40,940 bases of DNA, from IMG/VR virus record IMGVR_UViG_3300033489_000025, positions 1-40,940 of that record; one strand, given 5' to 3'. Positions 4,331 through 26,861 of this stretch are shown in pieces; positions within the stretch are counted from its first letter, which is position 1; every line of letters begins with the position of its first letter. The notes under the pieces were generated by a model. That model made no database searches. It had not been told where the DNA came from and was given only the letters and a program-made list of their open reading frames with translations. This stretch comes from a virus. The position numbers and the translations under genes are program-made.

Positions 4331-4541
4331 GAGGTATCAAAAGTCTGATCCGGAGATGCTGACACCGCGAGAAGAGGAAATCTGCGAGTTGGTAGCTCAG
4401 GGTTATAGGAGTAGGGTTATAGCTGATAAGCTTTTTATTTCTGAGCATACCGTTAAAAAGCATATCAGCCGAATTCTAGAAAAAACAAAGGCCCAGAATA
4501 GGACGCATTTAGCGTATATGTGGATGAAAAAAGACCCCTAA
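4323..4541 (+). CDS. LuxR/GerE-type helix-turn-helix (HTH) transcriptional regulator, stand-alone
   Basis: 'LTPREEEICELVAQGYRSRVIADKLFISEHTVKKHISRILEK' matches the LuxR C-terminal HTH pattern. Confidence 0.8.
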   Translation: MIKRYQKSDPEMLTPREEEICELVAQGYRSRVIADKLFISEHTVKKHISRILEKTKAQNRTHLAYMWMKKDP

Positions 4542-4553
4542 GGGGTCTTTTTT
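4527..4553. terminator. Bidirectional intrinsic terminator between convergent genes
   Basis: aaaaaagacccc-taa-ggggtctttttt; contains the stop codons of both flanking ORFs. Confidence 0.8.
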
Positions 4554-5064
4554 ATGTGCGTCTAAAGGTTATGTAACCTGTTAAAGTCTCATTCGCGATT
4601 GGCGTATAAATATTTGCCAACACCGGAATTATGTATACGCTTGTGGATGAGCCTAATTTCATGCTGACCTTTGTATTGGAAGCTAATTGCCCACGCGCGT
4701 TAAGCGCTGAGGCCTTCCAGGTATCGAAAGTTAACATCCCAATGGCTGTGTTCATTTCGGCATCGGTAAGCGTGAAAGCTGCGTTATCGACTGGCGATGC
4801 CGGCGGCGTGTTGAATACCCACACGTTAAATTGTGGTAATGTCGCCTGTGCGGCACTAGATGTTAAATAGCCGCCGATAACGTCAACATGTTGGCCATTA
4901 TATTCCGCTACACCATCAACGGCCACGGCATATGCTGTTGCTGTACTGGACGCCCATACGTCAGATACAGTATATGCGGTTGTGTTTGATGGCCTTACGA
5001 CGCTAAAGCTTAAAGTCACGCGATCTTCTTTCTCTTCGACCCTTTTTGGTCTTATAAAGTCCAT
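4552..5064 (-). CDS. Hypothetical Ser/Thr/Ala-rich 170-aa protein (reverse-strand moron)
   Basis: Track ORF; 'gaggtg' RBS 6 nt before the ATG; no motif recognised. Confidence 0.65.
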   Translation of the reverse strand: MDFIRPKRVEEKEDRVTLSFSVVRPSNTTAYTVSDVWASSTATAYAVAVDGVAEYNGQHVDVIGGYLTSSAAQATLPQFNVWVFNTPPASPVDNAAFTLTDAEMNTAIGMLTFDTWKASALNARGQLASNTKVSMKLGSSTSVYIIPVLANIYTPIANETLTGYITFRRT

Positions 5065-5082
5065 AATATCACCTCACGAATA

Positions 5083-5091
5083 ATTATATCA
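5083..5091 (-). promoter_or_regulatory. Extended -10 element (TGaTATAAT) for the reverse-strand gene
   Basis: + strand 'attatatca' is the reverse complement of TGATATAAT, about 20 nt upstream of the minus-strand ATG; no good -35. Confidence 0.4.
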
Positions 5092-5108
5092 CGTTTTTAA
5101 ATTAGTTA

Positions 5109-5137
5109 TTGACACAAGTATAAATACTTGATATAAT
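5109..5137 (+). promoter_or_regulatory. Sigma-70/SigA-type promoter, conserved copy 2
   Basis: TTGACA-17 nt-TATAAT; the spacer holds the dyad caagtat-aa-atacttg. Confidence 0.7.
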
Positions 5138-5193
5138 TATTTTATAAGGCAGATGCCATAAGGGCGAATTTTAATGGTTAGGGGGATTAAGTT

Positions 5194-5499
5194 ATGGATA
5201 ATTGGACTAAACAAAGACTTAAAAGTGCTTATAAAGATATAGAATTTGAAAGTGTAACACAAAAGGAATTTGATAATATAAAAGATATGCAAATACTAAA
5301 TGAATGGGGCAATTCCTCATACGAAGAATGGTACACCGTTATAAAAGAAAGTACTAAAAATTATAAGATTACAGTTGAGGGGCATAATGAAGAAATTGGT
5401 CTTACTTTTGGGGATAAGTCAAGTTATTGTTTTAAAGAATATAAATGCTATATAAATAAGGAGGCGATTGCGAATGTGCGACAATTGCGGATATTGTAA
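5194..5499 (+). CDS. Hypothetical protein
   Basis: Track ORF; 'aggggga' RBS. Confidence 0.6.
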   Translation: MDNWTKQRLKSAYKDIEFESVTQKEFDNIKDMQILNEWGNSSYEEWYTVIKESTKNYKITVEGHNEEIGLTFGDKSSYCFKEYKCYINKEAIANVRQLRIL

Positions 5500-5626
5500 T
5501 AGGCATGACGGATGCATTTGGGAGGTATTACAGGAAGAGCCAAGTAAGTGTTTGGCTCTGGAGGTGGAAGATGCTGATAGTGGTGATAGTGATATGTGTA
5601 ATCTATTTAATTTATGTACTTTATAA
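5474..5626 (+). CDS. 50-aa Cys-rich protein (not in the ORF track)
   Basis: My translation MCDNCGYCNRHDGCIWEVLQEEPSKCLALEVEDADSGDSDMCNLFNLCTL; 'aaggagg' RBS at 5458-5464. Confidence 0.45.
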   Translation: MCDNCGYCNRHDGCIWEVLQEEPSKCLALEVEDADSGDSDMCNLFNLCTL

Positions 5627-5642
5627 GGAAGGGGAATGTTAA

Positions 5643-5810
5643 ATGAAAAAGGTTAGAATAATAGTACCATATAGTAGTTATGTAGGTTATACTTATGCGA
5701 AGGGCGATAAACCTCGTCCTGTTGCCCAGCAGGGTTATAGTGCTTGGGTGACGCAAATATTATTTACGGATTATGCAAAATTAATGGGGTGGCGATATGG
5801 AAAAACGTAA
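5643..5810 (+). CDS. 55-aa hypothetical protein (not in the ORF track)
   Basis: My translation MKKVRIIVPYSSYVGYTYAKGDKPRPVAQQGYSAWVTQILFTDYAKLMGWRYGKT; 'aaggaagggg' RBS. Confidence 0.45.
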   Translation: MKKVRIIVPYSSYVGYTYAKGDKPRPVAQQGYSAWVTQILFTDYAKLMGWRYGKT

Positions 5811-5949
5811 AACCGAAAAGGTGGACTACACTAAAGAGGATATCAGCGGAGGGGACAAAGACTTTAAGGACTCAGAATACTTAAAAAATGAAGAAAACGA
5901 AAACGATTTCTTCCGATCAAAAAAAGTTAAAGAGGCATTTAAGAGATAG
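5797..5949 (+). CDS. 50-aa acidic/basic hypothetical protein (not in the ORF track)
   Basis: My translation MEKRKTEKVDYTKEDISGGDKDFKDSEYLKNEENENDFFRSKKVKEAFKR; ends inside the terminator. Confidence 0.4.
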   Translation: MEKRKTEKVDYTKEDISGGDKDFKDSEYLKNEENENDFFRSKKVKEAFKR

Positions 5950-5972
5950 AGCGCGATAAGCGCTCTATTTTT
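5948..5972 (+). terminator. Intrinsic terminator
   Basis: agagcgc-gataa-gcgctct followed by 'attttt'. Confidence 0.75.
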
Positions 5973-6005
5973 GTGCTATAATCTAATTAGGAAGGGGCGA
6001 CGGGT

Positions 6006-6455
6006 ATGATTTGGGAAACGTATGTGCGACCACGGGTATGCGAGATACTCGAGTGGAAGCGCGAGTATTTCACCAATAATGAAATAGCACAAAAGTTAGG
6101 TATCACAATTAGACAGTTCAATAAGGTTTTAGCTGAAAACAAAACGCTTAAAGACCTGATGGATGAGGGCGATAAATACATTGTCAAACAGGTGGAAGGC
6201 GCTATATTCAGGCGCGCTATGGGCTATACATATGACGAAGAAACTTTGGAGACTTACCGATCGGGGGGTAAGCCGGTAACGAAAAAAAAGATTGTGAAAA
6301 AGCATGTTGAAGGTTCTGTCGCAGCCCAGCAATTTTTGCTTACTAACCTAAAGCCTGAGAAATATCAAAAATTGGATAAGGTTGATATACATGTCGTAGA
6401 ACCGATAACGATAATCGACGACCTGGGAGGCCAAGATGGAAATAAAGTTAAGTGA
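6006..6455 (+). CDS. terS: Terminase small subunit (HTH-containing)
   Basis: Lies just upstream of the large terminase and overlaps it; 'NNEIAQKLGITIRQFNKVL' HTH. Confidence 0.7.
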   Translation: MIWETYVRPRVCEILEWKREYFTNNEIAQKLGITIRQFNKVLAENKTLKDLMDEGDKYIVKQVEGAIFRRAMGYTYDEETLETYRSGGKPVTKKKIVKKHVEGSVAAQQFLLTNLKPEKYQKLDKVDIHVVEPITIIDDLGGQDGNKVK

Positions 6456-7668
6456 AATAATAAGTCCTAATTTTATCGAGTCCTGGAGAGCCGATTACAC
6501 GCATACCTATTGCATTGAAAAGGGCGGCCGTGATTCGGGTAAATCCAGTAAGCACGCCTTGCGCATGGTGTATAATCGTATGTCGACTATGACAAGCGGC
6601 GCTTGTATTAGACGTTTCGGTAACACACTACATGGTAGTGTGTATCAGGATATTATCTGGGCCACTAAAAAATTTGGCGTTCAGCACTTATGGGATTTCA
6701 AAAAGTCGCCATTAGCCGCAATATATAAGCCAACAGGTACTAAGATATTATTTAAAGGCACAGAGGGCCCCGAGGACCGAATTAAGGGGCTTAAGGACGA
6801 ATTCCCCATTAAGGATTGCCTATTTGATGAGGTCGCCGATTATCGACAAGAGGATGACCTCGACGTAGTTATAGATACTATACTCAGGTCCGAAATGGGG
6901 GAACGGTATTTATTTTTATTGGGCTATAACCCCCCAAAGCGTAAGACACACTGGCTCAATAAACGGTATAATACGCATAGCGATATACCAGATACGTTTA
7001 TACACCATTCGACAGTGTACGATAATCCATACGCGGCTAAGCAGATGATCGAGAGGGCTGATGAACTAAAGATAAGTAATAATGTTAAATGGCGCTGGCG
7101 CTATATGGGTGAAGCCATAGGTTATGGGGTTGTGCCTTTTAGTAATTTAGAGTTTAGACGTATTACGGATGAGGAGATATCCACATTTGACAATATTTGG
7201 TGTGGCGCGGATTGGGGCTATGCGAATAACCCATTTGCTTATGTTAGATGCCATTATGATAAGGTAAATAGGATTTTATATTTTATAGATGAGTTGGTAG
7301 GTGTTAAATTGCACAATGATTATATAATAGAATGGCTACTCGAAAAAGGGTATAATGAAAGAACAACAGCGGATAGTGCCAGTCCTAAAGATGTCCAATA
7401 TTTTAAGGACAGGGGCATTAATATGGTTGGCGCTAGAAAAGGCCCGGGCTCTATCGAATCTGGCGAAAGATGGCTGGACTCGTTAAAGGCTATCGTTATT
7501 GACGATAGACGTACGCCCAGGACGTCTAAGCAATTTGAGGACATTGACTATGCGGTAGACGCACAAGGGAATATGTTAGCGCGTCTGGAGGACAAAGAAA
7601 ACGATGTTATCGACGCAACGCGCTATGCATGTGAGCTATTGATATTGGATAGAAAGACTATATACTAA
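6436..7668 (+). CDS. terL: Terminase large subunit, PBSX/XtmB-like family
   Basis: Walker A 'GGRDSGKS', 'LFDEVAD' Walker B-like motif, C-terminal nuclease region 'GADWGY...DAT'. Confidence 0.85.
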   Translation: MEIKLSEIISPNFIESWRADYTHTYCIEKGGRDSGKSSKHALRMVYNRMSTMTSGACIRRFGNTLHGSVYQDIIWATKKFGVQHLWDFKKSPLAAIYKPTGTKILFKGTEGPEDRIKGLKDEFPIKDCLFDEVADYRQEDDLDVVIDTILRSEMGERYLFLLGYNPPKRKTHWLNKRYNTHSDIPDTFIHHSTVYDNPYAAKQMIERADELKISNNVKWRWRYMGEAIGYGVVPFSNLEFRRITDEEISTFDNIWCGADWGYANNPFAYVRCHYDKVNRILYFIDELVGVKLHNDYIIEWLLEKGYNERTTADSASPKDVQYFKDRGINMVGARKGPGSIESGERWLDSLKAIVIDDRRTPRTSKQFEDIDYAVDAQGNMLARLEDKENDVIDATRYACELLILDRKTIY

Positions 7669-7765
7669 TGCAATTATCGACGCTAGGGGGTATGCTTATG
7701 ATAATTACTTTATAAAGTAATTGCTGTATAATTACATTATTAAATTTGAAAGGTCGTGTAATTAT

Positions 7766-8509
7766 ATGAATAATTTACTAACAATTAAGAAAGATACAAT
7801 TTATATTGCTACTGATATTTTAGCAAAAGAATTAGAAAGACAGCATAAAATAATTTATAATTTGGTAAATGTATACAAGAAAGAGATTGAAACGTTGGGG
7901 GCTCTTCACTTTGAAAATGTTCCAAATTCTGGGGAAAAGGGCGGGGGTACAAAAAAGATTTATTACTTAAACAAAAAACAATACATTTTTCTAATTACAA
8001 ATATGAGAACTAAAGCGAATGAAAAAACTACAGTAATGAAAGCAAAACTTGCAATAGCTGATAGATTTGTTGAAATGGAAAAATGGATACTGGAACAGAA
8101 AACACAAAAGCAAAATGAGCAGTATATCGAAACTAGAAATCAAAGCAAAATAGGCAGAAGACAGGAAACAGATGTTATAAAAATATTTATAGAATACGCT
8201 AAAAGCCAGGGCTCTAAAAGTGCCGATAAATATTATATGAATTTTAGTAAAATGGAAAACGCGGCTTTCTTTATTATCCAGGAGCGTTTTAAAAACACCA
8301 GGGAAATTTTAGATATGGAGCAAGTGCAAAAAATTGCATTTGCAGATATCGTAATACGGAATGCCTTATTAGAAGGAATGGAAAAAGAAATGTTTTATAA
8401 AGATATTTTTCAATTAGCTAAAAAGAGAGTTTTAGAAGCGGCTAATTCATTGGGCGTTAAGGAAATTATACCAAATTATAATGGGGGTGTGAAATGTTTG
8501 ACCGATTAA
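7766..8509 (+). CDS. Rha-family phage regulatory protein with conserved C-terminal domain (paralog 1)
   Basis: N-terminus 'ILAKELERQHKIIYNLV...FENV...KKIYYLNKKQYIFLITNM' is Rha-like; the C-terminal half is a close paralog of 26136..26861; AT-rich. Confidence 0.65.
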   Translation: MNNLLTIKKDTIYIATDILAKELERQHKIIYNLVNVYKKEIETLGALHFENVPNSGEKGGGTKKIYYLNKKQYIFLITNMRTKANEKTTVMKAKLAIADRFVEMEKWILEQKTQKQNEQYIETRNQSKIGRRQETDVIKIFIEYAKSQGSKSADKYYMNFSKMENAAFFIIQERFKNTREILDMEQVQKIAFADIVIRNALLEGMEKEMFYKDIFQLAKKRVLEAANSLGVKEIIPNYNGGVKCLTD

Positions 8510-9735
8510 AATTTTGGCGAAATTTCGCCAAAAAATCCTATTACACAGATGACTATAGGGCGGGTGCGCCTATATGGTCCATACAAGACGATACGGCATA
8601 TGTAGAAGAGGCTTTTGAGAAAATCGTCTGGTGTTATAGCTGTATAATCGCTATAGCCAGTGCCGTTGGTTCGATACCGTGGCGTTTGTACAAGCGCACA
8701 GGCGCAGACCTTAAAGAGGTTAAGAGCCATTATTTACTCGACATGTTTAATGGCCAGGTAAATCCGGACTTCACTTCGGCCGAGTTTTTCGAACTCTGGG
8801 CGGTATTCCTGGCGACACAGGGTAAATTCTTTGCGCTTAAAGACAATCCCGTACTGCCAAGTGAACTAAGGCCTATGTATGGGCATCAAGTTAAACCGAT
8901 ACCAGGGCCGGGGCCTCAGACGCTAAGCGGCTTTGAGTATGAGCTTAATAATACCAGGTACAGCCCAAATTTAGTATTGTGGGATAGGTTTATAGACCCT
9001 TTAGATTTTTACCAGGGACTTAGCCCTATACGCGCGGGCGCGCGTACGATGGCCACAGAGAACCAGGCTGTTGACTGGAACAAAAACGTATTTGACAATA
9101 TCGGCATACCGCCGGGCGCCTTAGCCCTATACAATGTATCCCCAACCCAAATCGATGAAGCTAAAAAGCGTTGGTTATCAGACTATAGCGGGCCAAAAAA
9201 GGCGCGAATGCCGTTTATTTTTGATTCTGAAAAGATTAACTATATCAATTTTGGTATGAGCCAGGTTGATATGGATTTCATCATGCAGAAAAAAGTTAAC
9301 CGTATTGAAATTTGTAGCACATTCGGTGTACCTGGCCAGGTGGTCGGTGACCCTGAGGGCCAGACTTACGCGAATTATGGCGAAGCGCTAAAGGCCTTTT
9401 GGTCTCAGACGGTAATACCTAGATACTTAAACCGTATAGGCGCGAAACTTAATAAAGACGTTGTGCGCCTATACGATAAAGCTTTTGTAATTAAGCCCGA
9501 CTTATCGGATATAGCTGTGTTACAAGAAGACGAGACATCTAAAACTGATAGAATCAGAGGCCTATTTATGGATAACGTAATGACTCAAAATGAGGCGCGT
9601 GAGGCTGTGGGCTTAACGGCTATACCGACGGGCGATGTGTTTAATTATCAATTGGCCGCGGCTTTAGCGGATACGGTACTTGACGAAGACGCGCCAGCCG
9701 ATGAAGAGGATGAGGATGAGGCCGATGACAATTGA
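8494..9735 (+). CDS. Portal protein (HK97-type family)
   Basis: Position and size; acidic C-terminal tail 'DEDAPADEEDEDEADDN'. Confidence 0.8.
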   Translation: MFDRLKFWRNFAKKSYYTDDYRAGAPIWSIQDDTAYVEEAFEKIVWCYSCIIAIASAVGSIPWRLYKRTGADLKEVKSHYLLDMFNGQVNPDFTSAEFFELWAVFLATQGKFFALKDNPVLPSELRPMYGHQVKPIPGPGPQTLSGFEYELNNTRYSPNLVLWDRFIDPLDFYQGLSPIRAGARTMATENQAVDWNKNVFDNIGIPPGALALYNVSPTQIDEAKKRWLSDYSGPKKARMPFIFDSEKINYINFGMSQVDMDFIMQKKVNRIEICSTFGVPGQVVGDPEGQTYANYGEALKAFWSQTVIPRYLNRIGAKLNKDVVRLYDKAFVIKPDLSDIAVLQEDETSKTDRIRGLFMDNVMTQNEAREAVGLTAIPTGDVFNYQLAAALADTVLDEDAPADEEDEDEADDN

Positions 9736-10465
9736 TGAGATTGAAGTCAAAAGGGCTTATTGGGATAGGAAATTTGAGAAAGAGCTTAAAAAATTCTTTA
9801 CAGCCCAGGGGGATGCGATTTATAAACTAAGGCGTATAACCGATATTAAACAATTTGAGCGCCAAGCGCTTAAACAGGTCGAGCAAGACGCCCCAAAGTT
9901 AAATCGCTTGTTTGTTGGGATGTATACTGGGATTGTAACGGCTTTTGGCACAACTGTTTACAATGAGCTCGTGGGTAAAAAGATATTTTCGCTATTTGCG
10001 CTTGGGATTTATAGCTGGATCGCCTCTATGGCTAAGAGTCAGACAGGCAGACTAAATTTTTATACGCTTTTGACTATTAAAAATGTCGTGAAGAAGGGTA
10101 TCGAAGAAGGCAAAAGCGTAAGCGATATAGCTAAAACAATAAGGACTGTATACCTAGAACGCTTTAGCGCTAAGCGCTCTAAGCGTATAGCGCGTACTGA
10201 GGTCAACAGCGCGTCGAATTATGGTTCGTGGGCGGGGGCTACGCAAACGGGACTTACACTTAAGAAAATATGGATAAGCACAAAAGATAGTCGAACGCGA
10301 AAAACGCATAAGCGAGCAGGTCAAAAGTATCAAGCCCAGCCCATCGGGCTAGACGAGTATTTCCAGGTGGGTAAAGGAAAATTAAAATATCCGGGTGACC
10401 ATAGCGGGCCGCCCGAAGAGGTCATAAATTGCCGCTGCGCGGTAGGGTATAGGAGGGTTAAATAA
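9725..10465 (+). CDS. Minor head morphogenesis protein (Mu F / SPP1 gp7 family)
   Basis: 'RIARTEVNSASNYG', '...INCRCA' C-terminal pattern; ATG 9725 chosen to limit overlap with the portal gene. Confidence 0.75.
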   Translation: MTIDEIEVKRAYWDRKFEKELKKFFTAQGDAIYKLRRITDIKQFERQALKQVEQDAPKLNRLFVGMYTGIVTAFGTTVYNELVGKKIFSLFALGIYSWIASMAKSQTGRLNFYTLLTIKNVVKKGIEEGKSVSDIAKTIRTVYLERFSAKRSKRIARTEVNSASNYGSWAGATQTGLTLKKIWISTKDSRTRKTHKRAGQKYQAQPIGLDEYFQVGKGKLKYPGDHSGPPEEVINCRCAVGYRRVK

Positions 10466-11068
10466 ATGGATTATAAATTTGTAAAAACTGAGGTTAAGGC
10501 AAAGAGCGATTTTGAGTTTGAAGGATACGCGTCAATATTTGGTAATGTCGATGATGGTGGTGATATCATGCAGGCGGGGGCTTTTGCCAAAACTATAAAC
10601 GAAAATCTAAAAAGAGTTAAAGTTTTATACATGCATAATGTTATGAGCACTATTGGCTTACCGAGTAATTTATTCGAAGATTCGAAAGGCTTATATTTTG
10701 ATGCTAAGGTATCTAAAACAACACTGGGTAAGGACGTTATGACACTTATCCATGATAAAGTCATAACCGACATGTCGATCGGTTATAATCCGGTTAAGTG
10801 GGCATGGGATGAAGAAATGGAAGTCCGAACCCTGCAAGAGGTCAGGCTCTGGGAAATTTCGCCGGTCACATGGGGTATGAATTCCTTAGCCAGTATAAAA
10901 ATGTTTGCTTCAGGCTCTGAGTATGATACAATAAAATCAGAACTTAAAAGGCTGGAGGCACTTATTAAAGGAGCCGGATTATCATCCACTCCGGGCAATG
11001 AGCCGCCAAAGGTACACGAATTAAACCCGGACGTAATTGCCAGTTTAATTGATAGAATTAAACTATAA
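10466..11068 (+). CDS. Prohead serine protease (HK97 family)
   Basis: 'FEGYASIFGNVDDGGDIMQAGAF', 'MHN', 'MSIGY'; directly upstream of the capsid gene. Confidence 0.85.
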   Translation: MDYKFVKTEVKAKSDFEFEGYASIFGNVDDGGDIMQAGAFAKTINENLKRVKVLYMHNVMSTIGLPSNLFEDSKGLYFDAKVSKTTLGKDVMTLIHDKVITDMSIGYNPVKWAWDEEMEVRTLQEVRLWEISPVTWGMNSLASIKMFASGSEYDTIKSELKRLEALIKGAGLSSTPGNEPPKVHELNPDVIASLIDRIKL

Positions 11069-11081
11069 AGGGGGGCAATAT

Positions 11082-12335
11082 ATGCCAACTATTGAAGAAT
11101 TAGTACAGAAAATAGATACGCTATCCAATCAACGCGTAAGCTCAGACGTCTTTAAGACATCACTCGACGAGCTTAAAGCGATGGTCGAAAAGCGTAATGA
11201 CGATGTTAAGGTTGAGCTAAAATCACACTACGAAACAGCGATGAAAGCCGCGTCCGAAGAGTTTGCAGAAAAATTAAGACTTTCCATGGTGGAAATGGGT
11301 AAGACCTTTACTACAAGTGGAGAAACTGGGGAAGATCTACCAGACGAAAAAACATATGGAAAATCCTTTGGCGAGTTTTTGACAAAGGTTAAATATACAC
11401 CTGAAAGCCTAAAAGTTTTAGGCGAGAATACCGGATCCGCTGGCGGATATTTAGTACCGACAACATGGTCAAAACGTATTTTAAAAAGAGCAATTGAAAA
11501 AGGGCTTGTCAGGACTTTCGGACCTAGCTTAATCGATATGCCCACGCCAAAATTTGAAGTACCGACTATTACTTCTACAAGTAACAGCAGTAATTTCTAT
11601 GGCGGAATTATGACTTACTGGGGATCCGAAACAACAGATTTAGAAGCCGGAATTACACAACCCACATTTGGACAGGTTAATTTGGACGCTGGAAAACTTT
11701 ATGGATATGCCGAAAGCTCTGAAGATTTGGCGCAGGACGCAATTATCGCTATAGGCCCATTGCTTCAACAGCTATTTGGTGACGCGATTGCGTTTGAGGA
11801 AGACTACGCGTTTATTAATGGTAATGGCGTTGGTAAGCCTCTGGGTGTTGTAAATGCGCCTTGTAGGGTTACGGTATCTAGAGCCACAGCAACACAGATA
11901 AACACTATTGATATAGTTAATATGTTATCTCGTTTTAGTGGCTCAATGGATAACGCTGTATGGCTTGCTAATCAGACAGTATTGCCATATTTGTATACAT
12001 TACAAGACGCTGGCGGAAATTATATTTTATTTCCGGGTATGTCTGGCAATATCGCTGGAAGGTCTCCGGGCTCAATTTTTGGAATTCCATTGGTTATTAG
12101 TGAAAAGGCACAGGCACTTGGTACCTCAGGTGATTTGATTTTAGGTGACTGGTCTAACTATTTGATCGGTGACCTTAGAGGCTTAAGAATTGAAGAGTCA
12201 AAAGACTTTAAGTTTGGAACAGATAAACGATGCTGGAAAATCGTTAAAAGGGTTGACGGCAAACCGTGGTTAAACTCAGCAATCACACCGCGAAATGGCG
12301 GATCAACATTATCCCCATTCGTGCTAATATCTTAA
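11082..12335 (+). CDS. Major capsid protein, HK97 fold, with N-terminal delta/scaffold domain
   Basis: Coiled-coil N-terminus, then 'GGYLVP', 'EEDYAFINGNGVGKPLGV'; RBS 'aaggggggc'. Confidence 0.85.
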   Translation: MPTIEELVQKIDTLSNQRVSSDVFKTSLDELKAMVEKRNDDVKVELKSHYETAMKAASEEFAEKLRLSMVEMGKTFTTSGETGEDLPDEKTYGKSFGEFLTKVKYTPESLKVLGENTGSAGGYLVPTTWSKRILKRAIEKGLVRTFGPSLIDMPTPKFEVPTITSTSNSSNFYGGIMTYWGSETTDLEAGITQPTFGQVNLDAGKLYGYAESSEDLAQDAIIAIGPLLQQLFGDAIAFEEDYAFINGNGVGKPLGVVNAPCRVTVSRATATQINTIDIVNMLSRFSGSMDNAVWLANQTVLPYLYTLQDAGGNYILFPGMSGNIAGRSPGSIFGIPLVISEKAQALGTSGDLILGDWSNYLIGDLRGLRIEESKDFKFGTDKRCWKIVKRVDGKPWLNSAITPRNGGSTLSPFVLIS

Positions 12336-12349
12336 GGAGGTGCTAGAGG

Positions 12350-12763
12350 ATGAATAAATTTACAGAAATGATTACAGCCAGTTTGCAGATAGCGAAAACA
12401 GTAACAACCGGAATATCTAGCACTGCATTGTTAGATATGATGCCCTACAAAAAAAGTATGGTTTTAGTTACAGCGAATAAGCCGCTCGACGCAACAGGCT
12501 CAAGCGGTGTTATTACTGCTACAGTATATGAGTCCAGCGCGGCTACATGGAATGGCGCAGTCGCAACAGCTATGACATCATTTGTGTCGACGGTTAGTTG
12601 TAACAGCACAACAGAAGGCTTTATAAAATTAGAAGTTAATGATTATGACATGTCAATTAATGCAACAAAACGCTATTTAGGCGTTAGGGTTGCTGCCCAT
12701 ACAGCCACTGATATCGTATGTATAGTGCAAAGATACAGAGGCGATAACGAACCCCTAGAATAA
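12350..12763 (+). CDS. Ser/Thr/Ala-rich 137-aa protein, possible head decoration protein
   Basis: Directly follows the capsid gene; RBS 'aaggagg'; no motif recognised. Confidence 0.5.
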   Translation: MNKFTEMITASLQIAKTVTTGISSTALLDMMPYKKSMVLVTANKPLDATGSSGVITATVYESSAATWNGAVATAMTSFVSTVSCNSTTEGFIKLEVNDYDMSINATKRYLGVRVAAHTATDIVCIVQRYRGDNEPLE

Positions 12764-12771
12764 CCCAGGAT

Positions 12772-12800
12772 AAAAAAAGGCTCTCATTTGAGAGCCTTTT
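12772..12800 (+). terminator. Intrinsic terminator after the capsid block
   Basis: ggctctc-attt-gagagcc followed by 'tttt', preceded by an A run. Confidence 0.75.
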
Positions 12801-12813
12801 ACTTTGTCAAGTA

Positions 12814-12842
12814 TTGTGCAAAGTATTTTTACATGATATAAT
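12814..12842 (+). promoter_or_regulatory. Promoter, conserved copy 3, driving the modification operon
   Basis: TTGTGC-17 nt-TATAAT; spacer 'aaagtatttttacatga' resembles those at 1990 and 5109. Confidence 0.55.
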
Positions 12843-12864
12843 AATACAAAAAGGGGGGTATACA

Positions 12865-13578
12865 ATGGAAACGTTAACACCAAAGACGTTAAGGCCTGAT
12901 AAGAAAACAATTATAATCGCGCTGCCAAATACAGGGCATTTTTATTTTGAGACTGTGGCGCGCTTATTATCTTTCCAAATACCTGAAGGGTATCAGCTCA
13001 TGTTTAACCTAATTTCTAATTGCTTGATTTACGATGCTCGTGAAAAGCTTGTGGAATTTGCGTTAGAACAGCCCAATGCAACGCACATTTTCTTTTTGGA
13101 CTCTGACATGGTGCCAGAGCCGCAAACGCTAACTCAATTAATAGGTTGGGATGTACCAATCGTCACAGCTAAAATCTATCAGCGCAAATTCCCATTCCAA
13201 CCATGCTTTTATACAAAAGTTAGAATAAATCGCGACTTTACAACAGAGTTAGAGGGACCAATGGAGCCTGAGAAATGGCCGTCTGAGGGTATATACGATA
13301 TAGAAGGTTGCGGTATGGCTTGTTGTCTGATTAACTTAAAAGTGTTTGAGGGACTTAAGAAACCATGGTTTTTCCCAATGCCCGGCGTGGGAGAAGACCT
13401 GGCTTTTTGCGTTAAAGCGAGAAGCGCAGGGCATAAGCTTTATGCGGATTTTGGTTTAGACTGTGCGCACATGGGTTATTTTCCAGTGGTTACGGCGTCT
13501 TTTCAAAACGCTTATACTGCGTGGATGAATAACCCCGAAAACAAAGGGAAATTAATATATGGCGGTGATGGGTTATGA
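12865..13578 (+). CDS. GT-A-fold glycosyltransferase
   Basis: 'IFFLDSDMVP' (DxD), 'GCGMACCLI', 'GVGEDLAFCVKARSAGHKLY'; no TM segment seen. Confidence 0.7.
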   Translation: METLTPKTLRPDKKTIIIALPNTGHFYFETVARLLSFQIPEGYQLMFNLISNCLIYDAREKLVEFALEQPNATHIFFLDSDMVPEPQTLTQLIGWDVPIVTAKIYQRKFPFQPCFYTKVRINRDFTTELEGPMEPEKWPSEGIYDIEGCGMACCLINLKVFEGLKKPWFFPMPGVGEDLAFCVKARSAGHKLYADFGLDCAHMGYFPVVTASFQNAYTAWMNNPENKGKLIYGGDGL

Positions 13579-14576
13579 GAATATGGGGCGGTGCGCTTGT
13601 GCGTAATGAGCAAGGGCGATATTTACAAAGATTTTGTGAGCAAATGCGGGCGATATGTGACCATGTTATCGTAATAGATGATGCCTCAACAGATAATACC
13701 GCAGATTTTTGTCGACAATATGATTTTAGTGTATTGTCTTCTAAGAAAAGATTATGGGATACCGACGAGGTAAGGCAAAGGAAAAGACTTTTTAATACCT
13801 TGACTTCACACGCGACACCGGGTGACTGGATATTGATACTTGACGCTGACGAGTTATTTCACGCGCCTCATAAGGTTGTACGTAGAGAATTAGAATATGC
13901 TAAAATACACACTTCTTTTATGGCTTATAGGTTATACGACATATGGCAAATACATAATGTGGGCTTTATTAATTCTAAAGTTAAGACGCCGCACTGCGAT
14001 GGCTTAGGCGTAGTAAACGCTGATGAATCAGGTAACGTGTATTTTTATAGAAATGACGAGTATTGGAATGCGCATGATAGTTATTGGCCTATGGCTTATA
14101 GGTATGAGGGTATTCAAGAATGGAAATGGAACGAACAAAGCCTTCATTGTGGAAGATTTCCCTATAATATTTATAAGAATATTAGCCCTTCGAATTATAA
14201 ATTACTGCATTTAGGCTGGGCGACCTTAGCGGATAGGCAACAGAAATACGCTAGATATATGAAGGCTGATCCTGACGGCAAATTTGGGATTATGGGCCAA
14301 TATCAATCAATATTGGACCCAAATCCGACTCTGGAGGTGGCGATTATGAATATTAAAGATATGACTGATAGTTTTATAATTTCGATGGTACACGACATCG
14401 AAGAATTATCAGAGCTACAAAAAGAACTGTGTAAATATTTAAGGGGTAACGAAAATAGGAATAAAATTATTGAAGAGGTAGCGGATGTTGAAATCGCTTT
14501 GAATGATATTAAAGCAAAATTCGACATCAAAGAAGTGAATATTAAAAGAGCGAAATTAAAGAAGGGGGTTTTATAA
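13575..14576 (+). CDS. Family-2 glycosyltransferase with a C-terminal MazG-like helical extension
   Basis: 'VIVIDDASTDNT', 'ILILDADE'; C-terminal 76 aa 'IEELSELQKEL...IIEEVADVEIALNDI' begins at an in-frame ATG (14346) with its own GGAGGTG RBS. Confidence 0.7.
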   Translation: MRIWGGALVRNEQGRYLQRFCEQMRAICDHVIVIDDASTDNTADFCRQYDFSVLSSKKRLWDTDEVRQRKRLFNTLTSHATPGDWILILDADELFHAPHKVVRRELEYAKIHTSFMAYRLYDIWQIHNVGFINSKVKTPHCDGLGVVNADESGNVYFYRNDEYWNAHDSYWPMAYRYEGIQEWKWNEQSLHCGRFPYNIYKNISPSNYKLLHLGWATLADRQQKYARYMKADPDGKFGIMGQYQSILDPNPTLEVAIMNIKDMTDSFIISMVHDIEELSELQKELCKYLRGNENRNKIIEEVADVEIALNDIKAKFDIKEVNIKRAKLKKGVL

Positions 14577-15125
14577 ATGGGCCCAGTAATGAATTATTCA
14601 GACCGTAGAGAGGTACTATTCTTCGCTGAACATTATAATTTTTTAGATGGTAAAATTTTAGATATCGGCTGTGGCACAGGCAATGCCGCAGATTTCTATA
14701 AAGACTATACCGGCATAACTTTAAACCGCCAGGAACTAGATACAGGTGTAACTCGTGGACGAAATATTAAATATATGGATGCTGAAAATTTAAGCCTTGA
14801 CACAGCGACTTTTGATGGCTTCATAATGTGGGATTCACTGGAGCACTTTTTGAGTCCGTATAGGGCTCTTTGTGAAGCTCGACGTGTGCTAAAGCCTGAT
14901 GGTAAGGGCCTAATATTTATGCCTGGTCAAAACTGGGTAAATTGCCATGAGCACTTACATGTTATGACTGTGCCTCAGATGGAACAGATTTTAAAAAGAA
15001 CTTTTTTTAAAGTTATAAATATTTATGAGAAAAAGTATCCTGGTAAACCAGATAAATATTGCGAGGGTATGGCGGTATACGAAATAATAAATGATATTGA
15101 ATATATACCGATGTTTGAAACGTGA
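14577..15125 (+). CDS. Class I SAM-dependent methyltransferase
   Basis: 'ILDIGCGTGN', 'FDGFIMWDSLEH', 'LKPDGKGLIF'. Confidence 0.8.
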   Translation: MGPVMNYSDRREVLFFAEHYNFLDGKILDIGCGTGNAADFYKDYTGITLNRQELDTGVTRGRNIKYMDAENLSLDTATFDGFIMWDSLEHFLSPYRALCEARRVLKPDGKGLIFMPGQNWVNCHEHLHVMTVPQMEQILKRTFFKVINIYEKKYPGKPDKYCEGMAVYEIINDIEYIPMFET

Positions 15126-15209
15126 TATAATAGGGTTATGGGCAAACCGGACGCGGTTATGGGGACAACGCCCAACCCCGCCCTATTTGATAGGGCTATT
15201 TTTTATTTT
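15122..15209 (+). promoter_or_regulatory. Intergenic extended -10 element plus GC-rich structured leader ending in a terminator-like hairpin
   Basis: 'gtgatataat' at 15122-15131; 'ccctat-ttg-ataggg' (15181-15195) then 'ctattttttatttt'; competing 'ataggg' at 15130-15135. Confidence 0.35.
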
Positions 15210-15223
15210 AAAGGAGCAAATTT

Positions 15224-17200
15224 ATGAAATTAATACTTTGTTATCCACCGCATATTGCGCCAGATGCGCAACACGGTCAAGGGCGTGAGTGGTACCCCAT
15301 AGGTATCGCGTCTTTAGCGGCTTATATAGATTCTAAATATAGAGATATCGATATAGCGTGTTTAGACCTATTCGATTTATCGTATGATGAATCTTTAAAT
15401 AAGATAACTAATGAAATGACCGAAAATGATATAAATTTAGTCGGTTTTACGCTTATGACTGAGCAAAGGGCTACAGTGTTTAATCTTTGTGCCGATTTGA
15501 AACAGCGCGTCGACGATTATAATTCAATCGCTAATACTACAACCCAATTAAGGACGATTGTTGGAGGTCCGCACGCGTCAATAATGTATCAGCAGATATG
15601 GGATAATTATAGCCAGATTGATTTTATCGTTGTGGGTGAGGGCGAAAAAGGTTTACTCCGGGTTATTTACAACCCGGATGTTCGAGGTATAGTCAAAGAA
15701 GATCAAATCGAAGATTTAGACACTTTGCCTTTAGCGATTGAGGGCTTAAAGTTTTTTAAACCCGGGCTTAAATTTAAAGAATACCCTATAGTATCGTCCC
15801 GCGGGTGCACAGACCGATGTACATTTTGTACAACGTATATAACCTGGAAGGGTTATCGCGTAAGAAGTGCGTATGATATATTTTTGGAAATAAATAAGGC
15901 TAAGGCTCTGGGCTATCAGTATTTTAAATTTCACGACGACAGCGCAACAGCTGATATGCAAAACTTTTTAGCCTTATGCCATATGTTAAAAGACTCGAAA
16001 ATTAATTTCGAGATAACGGCCAGGGCTGATCAACTAAATGAAGAATTAGTTAAGGCGTTAAAAATTGCCGGATGTGTCAAAGTCGCTTTAGGCCTGGAAT
16101 CAGGAAGCGAAAAGCTTAGAAAGTCAATGGGCAAAAAGTTAGACATAGCCCTGGCGTATCAAAACGTAAGATTACTACAGACTTATGGCGTACACGTCCA
16201 CGGTCTATTTATTGTAGGCTGGCCGGGTGAGACCGAAGAGACTATCGAAGAGACCCGCGATATGATTAAAGAGTTAAGATTAGACACTTTCTCAAATCTT
16301 CCGGGCTTAATGGCATTACCAGGAAATCCAATATATAATAAGTTTAAAAAAGATGGCTGGATAGATGATAGCTTTTGGTTAACACCTCATGCGCCTCCAT
16401 ATTACACAGGCGAGCATAATTTTGAGACACTAAATTATTTTAGTTCAAGACTTAGAGCGAGAGACGCGCGTGTGCTTATTGCGGCTGTGGTTAATCAGGA
16501 AGAACGCGTTTTCGCTGAATACTTAGAGCATTTAGATAATATGGCTGTGCCTAAAGACGTTGAGGTCTCTAGATGCTTTATATTACACAATAGCCCGGAT
16601 TTGAAAAAGTATCTTAAACCTGACGAGTATATCGAAGTAGATAATAATTTGGTCCATGATATGAGCCATACGTGGAATATTGAAAAGTTTACGTTTTTAG
16701 CCGATTGTAAGAATAAAATAGTCGAAATAGCCAATGGCGCACACGCGACTCACATTTTGTGGATTGATAGTGACTTATTGGTACAACCTGAAACGCTAAA
16801 ACATTTATTAAGCCTAAATGTTGATATTGTAGGCGAAATGTTTTTGACACAGTGGCCCGGCGCTGATAGGCCGATGCCTAACGCGTGGCACGTGGACCAA
16901 TATAGTTTTTACGCTGACCCAAAAATGTTTGATACTCGAGGCTTATATATGGTTGGAGGTACCGGGGCATTGATATTAGTGAATATACGTGTGTATGGCG
17001 ACTATATTAATTATAAAGCCGTCCCAAATGTGTCATTTAGCATCTGGGAAGATAGAGCCTTTTGTATAAGGGCTGCATGTGGGGGGTATAATATATATTT
17101 CGATACCAGGTACCCGGCCAGGCATTTATACACTAAAGAAATAACAGATAGCTATTTTAATGGTATAATAGAAGCGGGAGGTGTTAAAAATGGAGAATAA
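15224..17200 (+). CDS. B12-binding-domain radical SAM enzyme fused to a C-terminal GT-A-like domain
   Basis: N-terminal 'LVGFTLMT...IVGGPHAS'; 'SSRGCTDRCTFCT' (CxxxCxxC); 'GLESGSEKLRKSMGK'; C-terminal 'ILWIDSDLLV' and 'WEDRAFCIRAACGGYNIY'. Confidence 0.75.
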   Translation: MKLILCYPPHIAPDAQHGQGREWYPIGIASLAAYIDSKYRDIDIACLDLFDLSYDESLNKITNEMTENDINLVGFTLMTEQRATVFNLCADLKQRVDDYNSIANTTTQLRTIVGGPHASIMYQQIWDNYSQIDFIVVGEGEKGLLRVIYNPDVRGIVKEDQIEDLDTLPLAIEGLKFFKPGLKFKEYPIVSSRGCTDRCTFCTTYITWKGYRVRSAYDIFLEINKAKALGYQYFKFHDDSATADMQNFLALCHMLKDSKINFEITARADQLNEELVKALKIAGCVKVALGLESGSEKLRKSMGKKLDIALAYQNVRLLQTYGVHVHGLFIVGWPGETEETIEETRDMIKELRLDTFSNLPGLMALPGNPIYNKFKKDGWIDDSFWLTPHAPPYYTGEHNFETLNYFSSRLRARDARVLIAAVVNQEERVFAEYLEHLDNMAVPKDVEVSRCFILHNSPDLKKYLKPDEYIEVDNNLVHDMSHTWNIEKFTFLADCKNKIVEIANGAHATHILWIDSDLLVQPETLKHLLSLNVDIVGEMFLTQWPGADRPMPNAWHVDQYSFYADPKMFDTRGLYMVGGTGALILVNIRVYGDYINYKAVPNVSFSIWEDRAFCIRAACGGYNIYFDTRYPARHLYTKEITDSYFNGIIEAGGVKNGE

Positions 17201-17783
17201 ATTTTTGGCGTATAATGATGAAAAAATGGATACGGTTGAGGGCTTTAAAATACCGGCTTCATGGTGGTCAAGGCCTTTAGAATATGCGTTCGCCGCTAAA
17301 TATGTAAATAAAAAACATGTTGTAATTGACGCCGGATGCGGCATTGAGCATCCGTTTAAGTACTACTTAGCCAGTAATTCAAAGCACGTAACCTGTATAG
17401 ACACAGACGAGAGACTTGAGACTTTGCTCAGGCCTGATAACATGAATTTTATATTACGCGATATGTCAAATGATTGTGATACCGACGAAATAATAGCCGA
17501 TACAATCTTTTGCCTAAGTGTTTTAGAGCATATGAATCCTGCGCAACAGGCAAAGACTATAGAAAATTTCGTTAAATGGTTAAAGCCAAATGGCAAATTA
17601 ATTTTAACTGTTGACTATCCGACTATAAAACCAGAGGTTTTATGCGCTATGCTAGAGCCGCATTTTACGATAGGGAAATGCGATTATGATCCTGACAATA
17701 AGGCTAATATCGTTATGCCTTACTATAACTTAAAGGTATTTACTCTAGTTGGCACTAAAAAGAAGGTGGTCAAATGCGATTAA
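17190..17783 (+). CDS. Class I SAM-dependent methyltransferase (second)
   Basis: 'VIDAGCGIEHPF', 'IFCLSVLEHM', 'LKPNGKLILTVD'; ATG 17190 after a GGAGG RBS. Confidence 0.75.
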   Translation: MENKFLAYNDEKMDTVEGFKIPASWWSRPLEYAFAAKYVNKKHVVIDAGCGIEHPFKYYLASNSKHVTCIDTDERLETLLRPDNMNFILRDMSNDCDTDEIIADTIFCLSVLEHMNPAQQAKTIENFVKWLKPNGKLILTVDYPTIKPEVLCAMLEPHFTIGKCDYDPDNKANIVMPYYNLKVFTLVGTKKKVVKCD

Positions 17784-18364
17784 CCTTATTAACGGCATCG
17801 ACTCAGAGTATTCTGGGTATAACCGCTACTAAAAACTATTTAAAAGTCGAGCATACGACAGACGATACACTTATAAATACACTAATGACCGCGGCTGTGT
17901 CAATAGTCGAAAATTACACAGGTCTTGTCACGCATGAGCAAACATGGCGACAGGACGAAGAAGGCGACAGCGACTACTTAGAATTAATGAAAGCGCCGGT
18001 CAAAAGTATTCTTGAAGTCAAGTACTATGAAGATTTTGACAGTACAGGAAGTTTACTAACTGAGTCGACGGATTTCCGTGTTGCCGGTCAGTACCTTGTG
18101 CATGACGACGATTATTGGGATAAGCAAAGGGGTTTGGACGGATATCAAATTAAGTATTCAGTTGGGATGTATACGACTGATCCGCGTATGTCAAGTATGG
18201 AAATAGCCGCTTTAGCACTAACGGGATTTCTCTATGAGAATAGAGAGGCTTATGTCGTACAAGTCAATGAAACCTTTAGCGTAGTGTACGACTTTTCAAA
18301 AACACCAGCGCATATAATGCAATTGCTAAGACCCATTTGCGAAGGCCGGGGGGTGGGCTTCTAA
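17774..18364 (+). CDS. Head-tail connector protein (gp6-like)
   Basis: 'LKVEHTTDDTLINTLMTAAVSIVENYTG' is the typical N-terminal pattern; position. Confidence 0.7.
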   Translation: MRLTLLTASTQSILGITATKNYLKVEHTTDDTLINTLMTAAVSIVENYTGLVTHEQTWRQDEEGDSDYLELMKAPVKSILEVKYYEDFDSTGSLLTESTDFRVAGQYLVHDDDYWDKQRGLDGYQIKYSVGMYTTDPRMSSMEIAALALTGFLYENREAYVVQVNETFSVVYDFSKTPAHIMQLLRPICEGRGVGF

Positions 18365-26135: not shown

Positions 26136-26861
26136 ATGGAAATGATAGAATTAAAAAACAATGTACCATTAACAAGTACAAAAGTAATTGAATATTATAC
26201 AGGAGTAAAGCATCAGAATATTTTGCAATTATTTAGAAATCATGAAAAAAGTATAGAAAAATTCGGGGTTATCATGTTTGAAACATGGAAACCAAAAAAA
26301 GGAAGTAAAGGCGGCCGACCAGAAGCGTTTTATTATTTAAATGAAGAACAGTTTACATTTTTTATAATGTTAATGGCCAATAGCGAAAAAGTCGTTAAAT
26401 TTAAGATCGAACTAAATAAACAATTCCATCAATATCGTAAATACATACTGGAGCAAAAAACACAAAAGCAGAACCAACAATATATTGAGACAAGGAAGCA
26501 AAGCAAAATAGGCCGAAAACAGGAGACCGACATTATTAAATTATTTGTAGAATACGCAACGAATCAAGGTTCTAAGTCGGCGGAAAAATATTATATGAAT
26601 TTTAGCAAAATGGAGAATTCTGCTTTCTTTATGCTCCAAGAAAAGTTTAAAAATGTTAGGGAGATATTAAATATGGGACAGCTTAATAAAATTATTTTTG
26701 CTGACCTGATTATTAGACAGGCGATAACTGAAGGGATGGAAAAAGAAATGTTTTACAAAGATATTTATAAATTAGCTAAAGAGCGAATTATTGGGGCTTC
26801 AAATAGTGTCGGAATTAAAGAGATTTTACCAGGCATAGAGTTTAAAAGACTGGAGGTGTGA
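26136..26861 (+). CDS. Rha-family phage regulatory protein with conserved C-terminal domain (paralog 2)
   Basis: 'TSTKVIEYYTGVKHQNILQLFRN...FYYLNEEQFTFFIMLM' is Rha-like; C-terminus 'ILEQKTQKQNQQYIETRKQSKIGR...' matches 7766..8509. Confidence 0.7.
   Translation: MEMIELKNNVPLTSTKVIEYYTGVKHQNILQLFRNHEKSIEKFGVIMFETWKPKKGSKGGRPEAFYYLNEEQFTFFIMLMANSEKVVKFKIELNKQFHQYRKYILEQKTQKQNQQYIETRKQSKIGRKQETDIIKLFVEYATNQGSKSAEKYYMNFSKMENSAFFMLQEKFKNVREILNMGQLNKIIFADLIIRQAITEGMEKEMFYKDIYKLAKERIIGASNSVGIKEILPGIEFKRLEV

Follow-up and report, generated by a model that had tools for sequence, protein, structure and literature searches.

A putative virion-glycosylation cassette with a radical-SAM::glycosyltransferase fusion between the capsid and connector genes of an uncultured phage lineage

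To understand the role of an enzyme cassette embedded among phage structural genes, we analysed a stretch of viral DNA of 40,940 nucleotides (IMG/VR record IMGVR_UViG_3300033489_000025, positions 1 to 40,940; henceforth the window), in which five open reading frames (ORFs) at 12814-17783 separate the capsid gene from the head-tail connector gene. These ORFs encode glycosyltransferases (GTs), S-adenosylmethionine (SAM) methyltransferases and a radical-SAM domain fused to a glycosyltransferase. We hold with modest confidence that the cassette glycosylates a virion protein, which is the best-supported function given its position, its modular evolution, its homology to actinobacteriophage genes, the affinities of its glycosyltransferases to protein-modifying enzymes, the soluble nature of its enzymes, and the lack of DNA-modification or membrane partners. 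Cassettes of this type are already known (2013, 2023), and what is new here is the radical-SAM::GT fusion, the non-actinobacterial phage lineage and a leader RNA of the int-alpA type. The glycan, its acceptor and the radical-SAM chemistry discussed below are deduced from the genes. We use GT1, MT1 and MT2 for the products of ORF1, ORF3 and ORF5, respectively, GT_C for the C-terminal GT-A domain of ORF4, and L-numbers (e.g., L001, L025) for the related loci or contigs compared with the window. The cassette and its flanking genes are as follows:

11049-12335, + strand: major capsid protein, HK97-type (Pfam Phage_capsid, 148.5 bits; phrog_10)
12350-12763, + strand: p137, a Ser/Thr/Ala-rich jelly-roll protein of 137 amino acids (aa), conserved in 24 homologues
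12865-13578, + strand: GT1, a GT-A-like glycosyltransferase (phrog_1574 and phrog_12406, glycosyltransferase); ORF1, 12814/12865-13578
13575-14345, + strand: GT2, a family-2 glycosyltransferase occupying the first 257 aa of ORF2 (Glyco_tranf_2_4, 3e-14); ORF2, 13575-14576
14346-14576, + strand: MazG-like mini-ORF of 76 aa (phrog_2245, 8.7e-12; ATG at 14346 with its own Shine-Dalgarno (SD) sequence GGAGGTG)
14577-15125, + strand: MT1, a class I SAM methyltransferase (ORF3; Methyltransf_11, 3e-14, 53.8 bits)
15224-17200, + strand: fusion protein (ORF4) with a B12-binding domain (~aa 1-150), a radical-SAM core (~aa 186-400) and a GT-A domain (~aa 415-650)
17190-17783, + strand: MT2, a class I SAM methyltransferase (ORF5, 17181/17190-17783; Methyltransf_11, 34.3 bits, also _23 and _25)
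17774-18364, + strand: head-tail connector/adaptor, the downstream anchor (Phage_connect_1, phrog_442)

Three GT domains thus lie between the capsid and connector genes on one strand, and this position is conserved, with the capsid gene found 5' of the cassette in all related loci as its upstream anchor. The initial annotation, made from the sequence alone, had suggested searching relatives for the same block, and the search found it: the order capsid-p137-GT1-GT2-(MT1)-rSAM::GT-MT2-connector (rSAM, radical SAM) recurs in at least 13 distinct genomes from IMG/VR and JGI metagenome neighbourhoods. MT1 is variable (absent in L004 and L005, moved in L024), and MT2, which overlaps ORF4 and the connector gene, is present in every radical-SAM-bearing cassette. 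Using the GT_C half as query, we found a wider lineage (capsid E about 1e-98) with a minimal form of the cassette, capsid-p137-GT1-GT_C-connector, in which GT_C is free-standing. This form was present in more than 15 contigs and in a Paenibacillus oryzisoli prophage (L007; NZ_LYPB01000049, locus 4162-11500). Intermediate forms carry GT1-GT2-GT_C or GT_C-MT2. Together these loci (L007; L117, L119, L121, L122, L124, L128, L129, L134, L139; L126, L142-L144, L147) form a graded series at one site, always after the capsid gene and p137 and always before the connector gene: GT1 with GT_C, then the addition of GT2, of MT2, and of the radical-SAM domain (fused to GT_C) together with MT1. By this series, the radical-SAM module is the latest addition to a cassette that has been growing at one fixed site. 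What emerges is a homologous modular cassette, ranging from two glycosyltransferases to a five-enzyme set, in a large uncultured lineage of ~40-kb siphoviruses that probably infect Bacillota. Its minimal form in the prophage of a cultured Paenibacillus offers an experimental handle.

To our knowledge, actinobacteriophages alone have so far been shown to have glycosylated virions, and in them glycosylation shields particles from antibodies. In Cluster J mycobacteriophages, the genes for the major capsid protein and the head-tail connector are separated by an insertion of 8-10 genes that encode glycosyltransferases, SAM methyltransferases and a kinase (Pope et al. 2013, PMC3706429). The insertion of Optimus opens with gp12, immediately after the major head protein gene, and continues with a kinase, a methyltransferase and four more glycosyltransferases, up to the head-tail connector. 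The architecture of the window cassette is therefore not without precedent, as an insertion of glycosyltransferases and methyltransferases occupies the same site in Cluster J. The window cassette resembles this insertion (Optimus gp12-gp21) in its capsid-connector position, in its orientation, and in combining several GT-A enzymes with a SAM methyltransferase. Moreover, GT1 shows homology to gp12, with 26% identity across 68% of its length (tblastn 3e-6, phmmer 1e-11). It is the one window cassette protein with detectable homology, the match of GT2 to gp21 being marginal (1e-3). The two also differ: a radical-SAM enzyme, a p137-like gene and an int-alpA-like RNA are all missing from the Cluster J insertion, and Cluster J phages have Actinomycetota hosts and genomes of ~110 kb, compared with 41 kb here.

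A closer functional parallel comes from mycobacteriophage Che8 and Cluster O, whose virion glycosylation (Freeman et al. 2023, Cell Host Microbe) is summarised in PMC11256854, PMC11600133 and PMC12619734. According to PMC11600133 (citing Freeman 2023), three glycosyltransferases and an O-methyltransferase of Cluster O phages modify both capsid and tail tube. Phage glycosyltransferases (with an O-methyltransferase in Cluster O) glycosylating capsid and tail-tube subunits is the function that we propose here, shown experimentally in those phages and deduced here from genes. [quoted passage not shown]

The glycosyltransferases themselves fit such a role. GT1 and the C-terminus of ORF4 match the same PHROG (phrog_1574), and judging by their sequences the two are paralogous. 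Both resemble the GT62/Anp1 family (Pfam PF03452, cut-off 28.8) without being members of it by sequence score (20.5 bits for GT1 and 25.2 bits for the Anp1-like region of ORF4), and both are similar to Mnn9, COLGALT1, LH3 and STIV A197. Features of the GT-A fold are present in all three domains: the DSD motif is invariant in GT1 (together with GEDL) and in GT_C, DAD is invariant in GT2, and an AlphaFold2 (AF2) model of the ORF4 C-terminal part was found by Foldseek to be nearest to the collagen galactosyltransferase COLGALT1, with LH3 and SpsA also matching. GT2 passes the Pfam GT2 thresholds (Glyco_tranf_2_4, 53.7 bits), and its DDxSxDxT and DADE motifs are conserved among relatives. Indeed, all motifs quoted in the initial annotation were found where it had placed them, and they are conserved across relatives. 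In a profile search of PDB, the nearest solved relatives of GT2 were GmaR (1.9e-8), which glycosylates a protein, SunS (6.9e-7), which glycosylates a peptide, and the chain in entry 7msk (5.3e-6). Enzymes of the GmaR/SunS/ThuS type are soluble and glycosylate polypeptides in the cytoplasm; they differ in having no tetratricopeptide repeat (TPR) or acceptor-binding domain in common with GT2, and GT2 scores far under the cut-offs of these families (e.g., 28.9 bits for the NCBIfam SunS family, against a cut-off of 350).

Some of these affinities can also be read in a different way, namely that the cassette modifies the host surface or host proteins from the cytoplasmic side (wall teichoic acid, capsule, S-layer glycan, flagellin or pilin), so that superinfection is blocked or progeny are kept from adsorbing to debris. 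GmaR, which GT2 resembles, is a flagellin O-GlcNAc transferase, and homologues of GT_C occur in bacterial glycan clusters, such as that of a Synergistetes metagenome-assembled genome (MAG; L012), with Wzy_C, a polysialyltransferase-like gene and a GT2. The initial annotation had argued against a cell-surface role from the lack of transmembrane helices and of a flippase. Both observations stand: a Kyte-Doolittle scan found no membrane helix in the five cassette proteins (maximum 19-residue mean at most 1.25), and there was no flippase in the window scans. This sets the cassette apart from lysogenic conversion of the GtrABC type, which relies on a GtrA flippase, the bactoprenol GT GtrB and a membrane GtrC beside int/att. 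The argument built on them is nevertheless weak, as TarP-like cytoplasmic phage glycosyltransferases without transmembrane segments modify wall polymers. What speaks against host modification is rather the phage and the site: the phage looks lytic, with no integrase found and with its own PolA, primase-helicase and single-stranded DNA-binding protein (SSB), and the cassette is part of the late structural operon and shares its orientation, at a single fixed site in all relatives, unlike lysogenic-conversion modules. In addition, homologous actinobacteriophage cassettes are tied to virion modification (PMC11600133). We therefore regard host modification as unlikely.

Homologues of GT_C in other bacteria have a different setting from that of L012. 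In Clostridium and Sarcina, they are fused to GT2 domains and adjoin a collagen-repeat protein and GT2-TPR proteins, a setting that speaks for protein glycosylation. Because the bacterial homologues fall into two contexts, the GT_C family does not fix the acceptor. Bacterial proteins of ~645 aa combine an Anp1-like GT (the GT_C homologue) with a GT2 (L009, a Clostridium sp. MAG, 7272-12934; L008, L011 and L013). Neighbours were scanned in L009 alone, where the fusion adjoins two GT2-TPR proteins and one protein with collagen-triple-helix repeats, which suggests glycosylation of a BclA-like surface protein.

The most distinctive component of the cassette is ORF4. Its B12-binding (PF02310, 43.1 bits, cut-off 32.1) and Radical_SAM (86.5 bits, cut-off 29.5) domains pass the Pfam thresholds, while the Anp1-like region does not; the CxxxCxxC cysteines are C195/C199/C202, and DSD occupies residues 515-517. 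We found 20 full-length fusion homologues (41-84% identity), on contigs of 35-40 kb, and the cluster was found only in the JGI, ENA and Logan metagenomes. In all of these homologues, CxxxCxxC, GGPH and GEGE (both in the B12-like domain), and DSD and EDR (both in the GT domain) are invariant. We modelled the protein with AF2 (predicted local distance difference test score, pLDDT, 87.2), and the N-terminal part superposes on AprD4, TsrM and OxsB. AprD4 (PDB 6fd2), a radical-SAM 1,2-diol dehydratase of apramycin biosynthesis that acts with the reductase AprD3 on an aminoglycoside sugar, is the best match both in sequence (1.5e-18 by sequence alone, 1.1e-24 by profile) and in fold (Foldseek 9e-19, template modelling (TM) score 0.69), and it shares with ORF4 an N-terminal Rossmann domain followed by the radical-SAM core. 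By sequence it is followed by MgmA (9ccb; 8.5e-17 by profile, Foldseek 8.5e-17) and OxsB, and in the Foldseek order by MgmA, TsrM, MiaB, OxsB and CysS.

These affinities do not single out a reaction. Class B radical-SAM methylases (MgmA, TsrM, CysS, TokK, GenK) have the same order of B12-binding and radical-SAM domains and the CxxxCxxC motif, and MgmA and TsrM are also similar in fold (Foldseek 1e-16), whereas TsrM (1e-5), CysS and TokK (0.05-0.09) are remote in sequence. NCBIfam placed ApyD, an enzyme of ribosomally synthesised and post-translationally modified peptides (RiPPs), on top (127.6 bits), with HpnJ, PhpK, BchE and others also found, all far under their cut-offs, so that no NCBIfam equivalog threshold was approached by the domain. 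The similarity of AprD4 to ORF4 has its own limits: identity is only about 22%, AprD4 has no GT fusion, and the window cassette has no short-chain dehydrogenase/reductase (SDR) partner. Furthermore, AprD4 is not known to use cobalamin, while the score of ORF4 exceeds the B12-binding threshold. From its sequence we consider the domain class-B-like and compatible alike with methylation, dehydration or another reaction. The step taken in the initial annotation from a B12 radical-SAM enzyme to methylation is therefore not established, because the closest relative is a sugar diol-dehydratase (AprD4), followed by a protein C-methylase (MgmA) and OxsB, with TsrM, CysS and TokK far weaker by sequence.

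The radical-SAM domain is probably sugar-directed. A stand-alone orthologue (38% identity) on a viral contig (L025, 1-9603) is preceded by a GT2+GT1-family fusion and directly followed by an SDR, DUF2284, a sugar-phosphate nucleotidyltransferase (NTP-transferase), an epimerase-like gene, MT1 and MT2, i.e., it stands in a nucleotide-sugar context, and its radical-SAM and SDR pair recalls AprD4/AprD3. This context bears on another possibility, that the domain acts directly on a side chain of the capsid protein or p137 (e.g., by C-methylation, as in the maturation of methyl-coenzyme M reductase (MCR) or RiPPs), with the glycosyltransferases and methyltransferases adding separate modifications. 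Such a direct action would be in keeping with the second-best solved relative MgmA, an MCR glutamine C-methylase, with the RiPP enzyme ApyD as the top NCBIfam match, far under its cut-off, and with the highly conserved p137 adjoining the cassette. However, the domain is fused to a glycosyltransferase in each of the 21 homologues compared, its stand-alone orthologue lies among nucleotide-sugar genes, its best relative acts on a sugar, and no RiPP-like leader or recognition element was identified, so that we judge direct modification of a protein side chain to be quite unlikely.

Our literature search found no paper on a B12-like radical-SAM::GT fusion in a phage pathway, nor on a radical-SAM enzyme in such a virion-modification pathway, which agrees with the initial statement that no described capsid-modification pathway in phages is known to have a radical-SAM component. 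The fusion is a new enzyme architecture that predicts unusual (C-methyl or deoxy) sugar chemistry on a virus particle, and, being soluble and made up of two domains, it would be a tractable system in which to study the action of class-B-like radical-SAM enzymes on glycans. A different and widespread viral gene set was seen in L049 (519-15162), where a collagen-repeat tail-fibre gene that carries a Peptidase_S74 chaperone domain has directly downstream of it the genes for an Anp1-like GT (a GT1 homologue), a B12-binding radical-SAM protein of 740 aa and two more radical-SAM proteins, one with SPASM. The ~740-aa radical-SAM protein is shared by about 55 IMG/VR loci of similar kind (L035-L094); gene content was examined in L049, and L051 has a GT1-like gene too. 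Radical-SAM enzymes beside virion genes may thus be common in uncultured phages.

Candidate acceptors of the glycan are the capsid protein, whose best match among isolates is that of Streptomyces phage Dagobah, and the adjacent p137. The latter has 24 homologues (45-93% identity) with an invariant TWNGA core and is better conserved than the cassette enzymes, with no Pfam, PHROG or NCBIfam match and nothing found by tblastn against phages. Its AF2 model (pLDDT 75) is a jelly-roll beta-sandwich. A search for a known fold or decoration family with Foldseek (PDB, BFVD) returned only generic jelly-roll, lectin and carbohydrate-binding-module folds (TM score at most 0.67), with small uncharacterised Caudovirales proteins among the matches. 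In our view p137 probably serves as an accessory or decoration protein of the head, and as an acceptor it is a reasonable candidate, no more. GT1 follows p137 in every locus where p137 was detected; we looked for p137 apart from glycosyltransferases, and all detectable homologues belong to cassette-bearing members of the same phage lineage. The proposal of p137 as acceptor has only adjacency and co-occurrence as its grounds. In two related loci, Ser/Thr-rich ORFs of ~104 aa lie at different places in or beside the cassette (L002, 6252-6569; L004, 13299-13610); they are alike by eye over the first 60 residues and might be further structural or acceptor proteins.

The PDB matches of MT1 are weak and include the sugar O-methyltransferases 3bus and 6uv6, and those of MT2 are generic only. 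One may ask whether the enzymes glycosylate or methylate the bases of the phage DNA as a defence against restriction. Phage glycosyltransferases and radical-SAM enzymes are known from DNA hypermodification pathways (Pyle 2024, as cited in PMC12619734). In the window, a MazG-like NTP pyrophosphatase is indeed fused to GT2, as the two stand in one frame in ORF2 (GT2 to about 14345). The fusion is confined to the window: in the 84%-identical L001 they are two overlapping genes, and the window has a 1-nt deletion just before the internal SD and ATG, so that the join (14335-14350) may be genuine or may be an artefact of the assembly. The MazG-like part is absent from relatives other than L001, the cassette lies in the structural rather than the replication module, and searches of the window ORFs (PHROGs, Pfam) revealed no deoxynucleoside monophosphate hydroxymethylase, thymidylate-synthase homologue, nucleotide kinase or DpdA/QueC-type gene. 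Given this lack of precursor-base enzymes, we concur with the initial annotation in placing DNA hypermodification low, and we think it highly improbable.

Several points weigh against glycosylation of a virion protein as well. Both the glycan and the acceptor are indirect deductions; the sequence of a GT-A family enzyme does not reveal its acceptor; and surface-polysaccharide roles do exist in the GT_C family, as in the L012 cluster. The match of GT2 to GmaR and SunS spans only its N-terminal ~110 residues, i.e., the nucleotide-sugar-binding part. Proteins or peptides rather than sugars are the substrates of MgmA and of ApyD, the latter from NCBIfam, which are the second-best relatives of the radical-SAM domain. 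Finally, p137 has no recognisable decoration-protein fold, and its co-occurrence with glycosyltransferases is not independent evidence, because all detected p137 homologues share one lineage.

If virion glycosylation is nevertheless the function, the pathway could run as follows. The cassette would be expressed with the late morphogenesis genes, and a short glycan would be built in the cytoplasm by the three soluble GT-A-type domains (GT1, GT2 and GT_C) and attached to a virion protein, i.e., the capsid protein or the adjacent p137. The glycan would be methylated by the two SAM methyltransferases, and its sugar might undergo radical modification by the class-B-like radical-SAM domain, either C-methylation or an AprD4-like dehydration/deoxygenation; this step would take place on the sugar donor or the nascent glycan, beside the transfer step. 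Of the initial proposal of a methylated glycan on a virion protein, the virion glycosylation is thus retained as the best reading, and methylation by the radical-SAM enzyme is left as one option.

The transcription signals around and within the cassette, and an RNA leader, are as follows:

12775-12809, + strand: intrinsic terminator closing the capsid block (hairpin AAAAGGCTCTC/GAGAGCCTTTT, then TTTTACTTT)
12814-12842, + strand: promoter-like site with an extended -10 (TTGTGC-N14-TGATATAAT), similar to the sites at 1990-2018 and 5109-5137
15123-15131, + strand: extended -10 element TGATATAAT, directly upstream of an RNA leader
15140-15196, + strand: structured, conserved RNA leader, int-alpA-like (alignment of 18 sequences)
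15180-15209, + strand: terminator-like hairpin GCCCTAT-TTG-ATAGGGC with a T-run, competing with P1 and the pseudoknot of the leader
17161-17169, + strand: extended -10 element TGGTATAAT, upstream of MT2 and the connector gene

The clean terminator and the promoter of the phage's own type that the initial annotation had described were both confirmed. The terminator hairpin (12775-12800) reads GGCTCTC-ATTT-GAGAGCC and is followed by the T-run, and comparable terminators were found at the same place in L001, L018, L019, L111 and L004. The promoter-like site has 22 of 29 positions in common with the sites at 1990 and 5109, including spacer and -10; it is kept in L001, with -10 equivalents in L019, L004 and L111, so that relatives, too, have a terminator and an extended -10 in the interval from p137 to GT1. 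The real start of ORF1 lies at ATG 12865, preceded by AAAGGGGGG. Across the window we counted 10 copies of TGNTATAAT where 4.45 were expected (1 of 100 shuffles reached 10), and all six copies on the + strand (1990, 5109, 5974, 12814, 15123 before ORF4 and 17161 before ORF5) stand 20-100 nt upstream of a gene start. The cassette probably holds three extended -10 promoters. The last ORF does overlap the start of the connector gene, by 10 nt, as initially noted. The same description of five tightly packed ORFs holds for their number, and fails for their packing, since a structured RNA leader in a gap of 98 nt separates ORF3 from ORF4. The early/packaging region holds two nearly identical copies of a 29-nt promoter module (TTGACA.AAGTATAAATACTTGATATAAT; 1990-2018 and 5109-5137), and a third, diverged copy is the one before GT1.

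The gap between ORF3 and ORF4 (15126-15223) is alignable across relatives despite protein identities of only ~50%. Comparison of the leaders supports four helices, namely P1 (15140-43/15180-83), P2 (15146-49/15154-57, with a GACG loop), P3 (15161-64/15176-79) and a pseudoknot (15170-73 with 15193-96) between the P3 loop and the 3' G-rich tail, the last of which we infer to be covarying. In an alignment of 18 sequences including the window, fitted by hand and therefore inflating the pairing and covariation figures, 99.2% of cells were paired (60.8% when shuffled), double-sided (compensatory) changes occurred at 23 of 27 pairs, and covariation was 0.683, compared with 0.164 in shuffled and at most 0.093 in slid alignments.

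The leader resembles the int-alpA RNA (RF02996) in that P1 encloses P2, with its GACG-type loop, and P3, and in its UA junction, GAAA junction and conserved 3' G-rich tail. Four relatives score above the Rfam gathering score of 35.8 bits (L118, 41.7; L121, 39.9; L128, 39.3; L138, 37.9), and L109 scores 35.5. The four are minimal-cassette loci, in which the RNA lies directly upstream of GT1, whereas in the window family it precedes the radical-SAM::GT gene (positions: L118, 40-101; L121, 767-829; L128, 1763-1825; L138, 3-66; L109, 2054-2125; L007, about 9270-9340). The copy in the window has diverged too far for the Rfam model to recognise it, with no match to RF02996 at E<=10, and it was also missed by two ad-hoc covariance models (R1, N-padded, and R2, with a trimmed seed), which likewise miss most positive controls. 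We also considered a known riboswitch (cobalamin, SAM or guanidine) in the gap, and rejected it, as Rfam gave none at gathering threshold on the whole window and only noise at E<=10 on the gap.

The int-alpA motif reportedly belongs to the set of 224 candidate RNAs described by Weinberg et al. 2017. It is an orphan motif, typed as a small RNA (sRNA) by Rfam (RF02996). Here it is always a 5' leader of structural-operon glycosyltransferase genes rather than a neighbour of int or alpA. Because a promoter and a terminator flank the window copy, its possible roles include those of an sRNA, of an attenuator and of a riboswitch-like leader. Its occurrence here opens the orphan motif to experiment, and a role as riboswitch, attenuator or antiterminator would, if true, give the motif its first functional context.

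Taking the fusion and the leader together, we tentatively raise the possibility, itself rather doubtful, that ORF4 is the first radical-SAM enzyme for virion decoration (by which the capsid protein or p137 would gain a C-methylated residue or a sugar in C-methyl or deoxy form), with an RNA of the int-alpA class as cis-regulator of the glycosylation genes. We know of no virion with such chemistry. If confirmed, cassettes of this kind would matter for the immunogenicity of phages in therapy, for the evasion of receptors and defences, and for how the many "auxiliary" GT2 and radical-SAM genes of viromes are annotated.

The window phage is undescribed, given that we found no near-identical DNA among GenBank phages. 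It looks like a lytic siphovirus, and its host probably belongs to the phylum Bacillota: its PolA is 46% identical to that of Bacillus phage SPO2 and similar to polymerases of Clostridium and Brevibacillus phages. It also encodes a primase-helicase, a gp2.5-like SSB and an endolysin, with no integrase in the window scans and no tRNAs in the window. We further considered whether the cassette belongs to a defence or anti-defence system, and PADLOC returned only generic methyltransferase and radical-SAM domain matches.

Outside the cassette, a third class-I-like methyltransferase ORF (34240-35163, 307 aa; weak Methyltransf_25/11) lies in the replication module and adjoins the DNA polymerase gene. 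Finally, two paralogous Rha/anti-repressor-like genes (phrog_2657) occur at 7721-8509 and 26136-26861, one of them between the large terminase and portal genes, an unusual site for a regulator.

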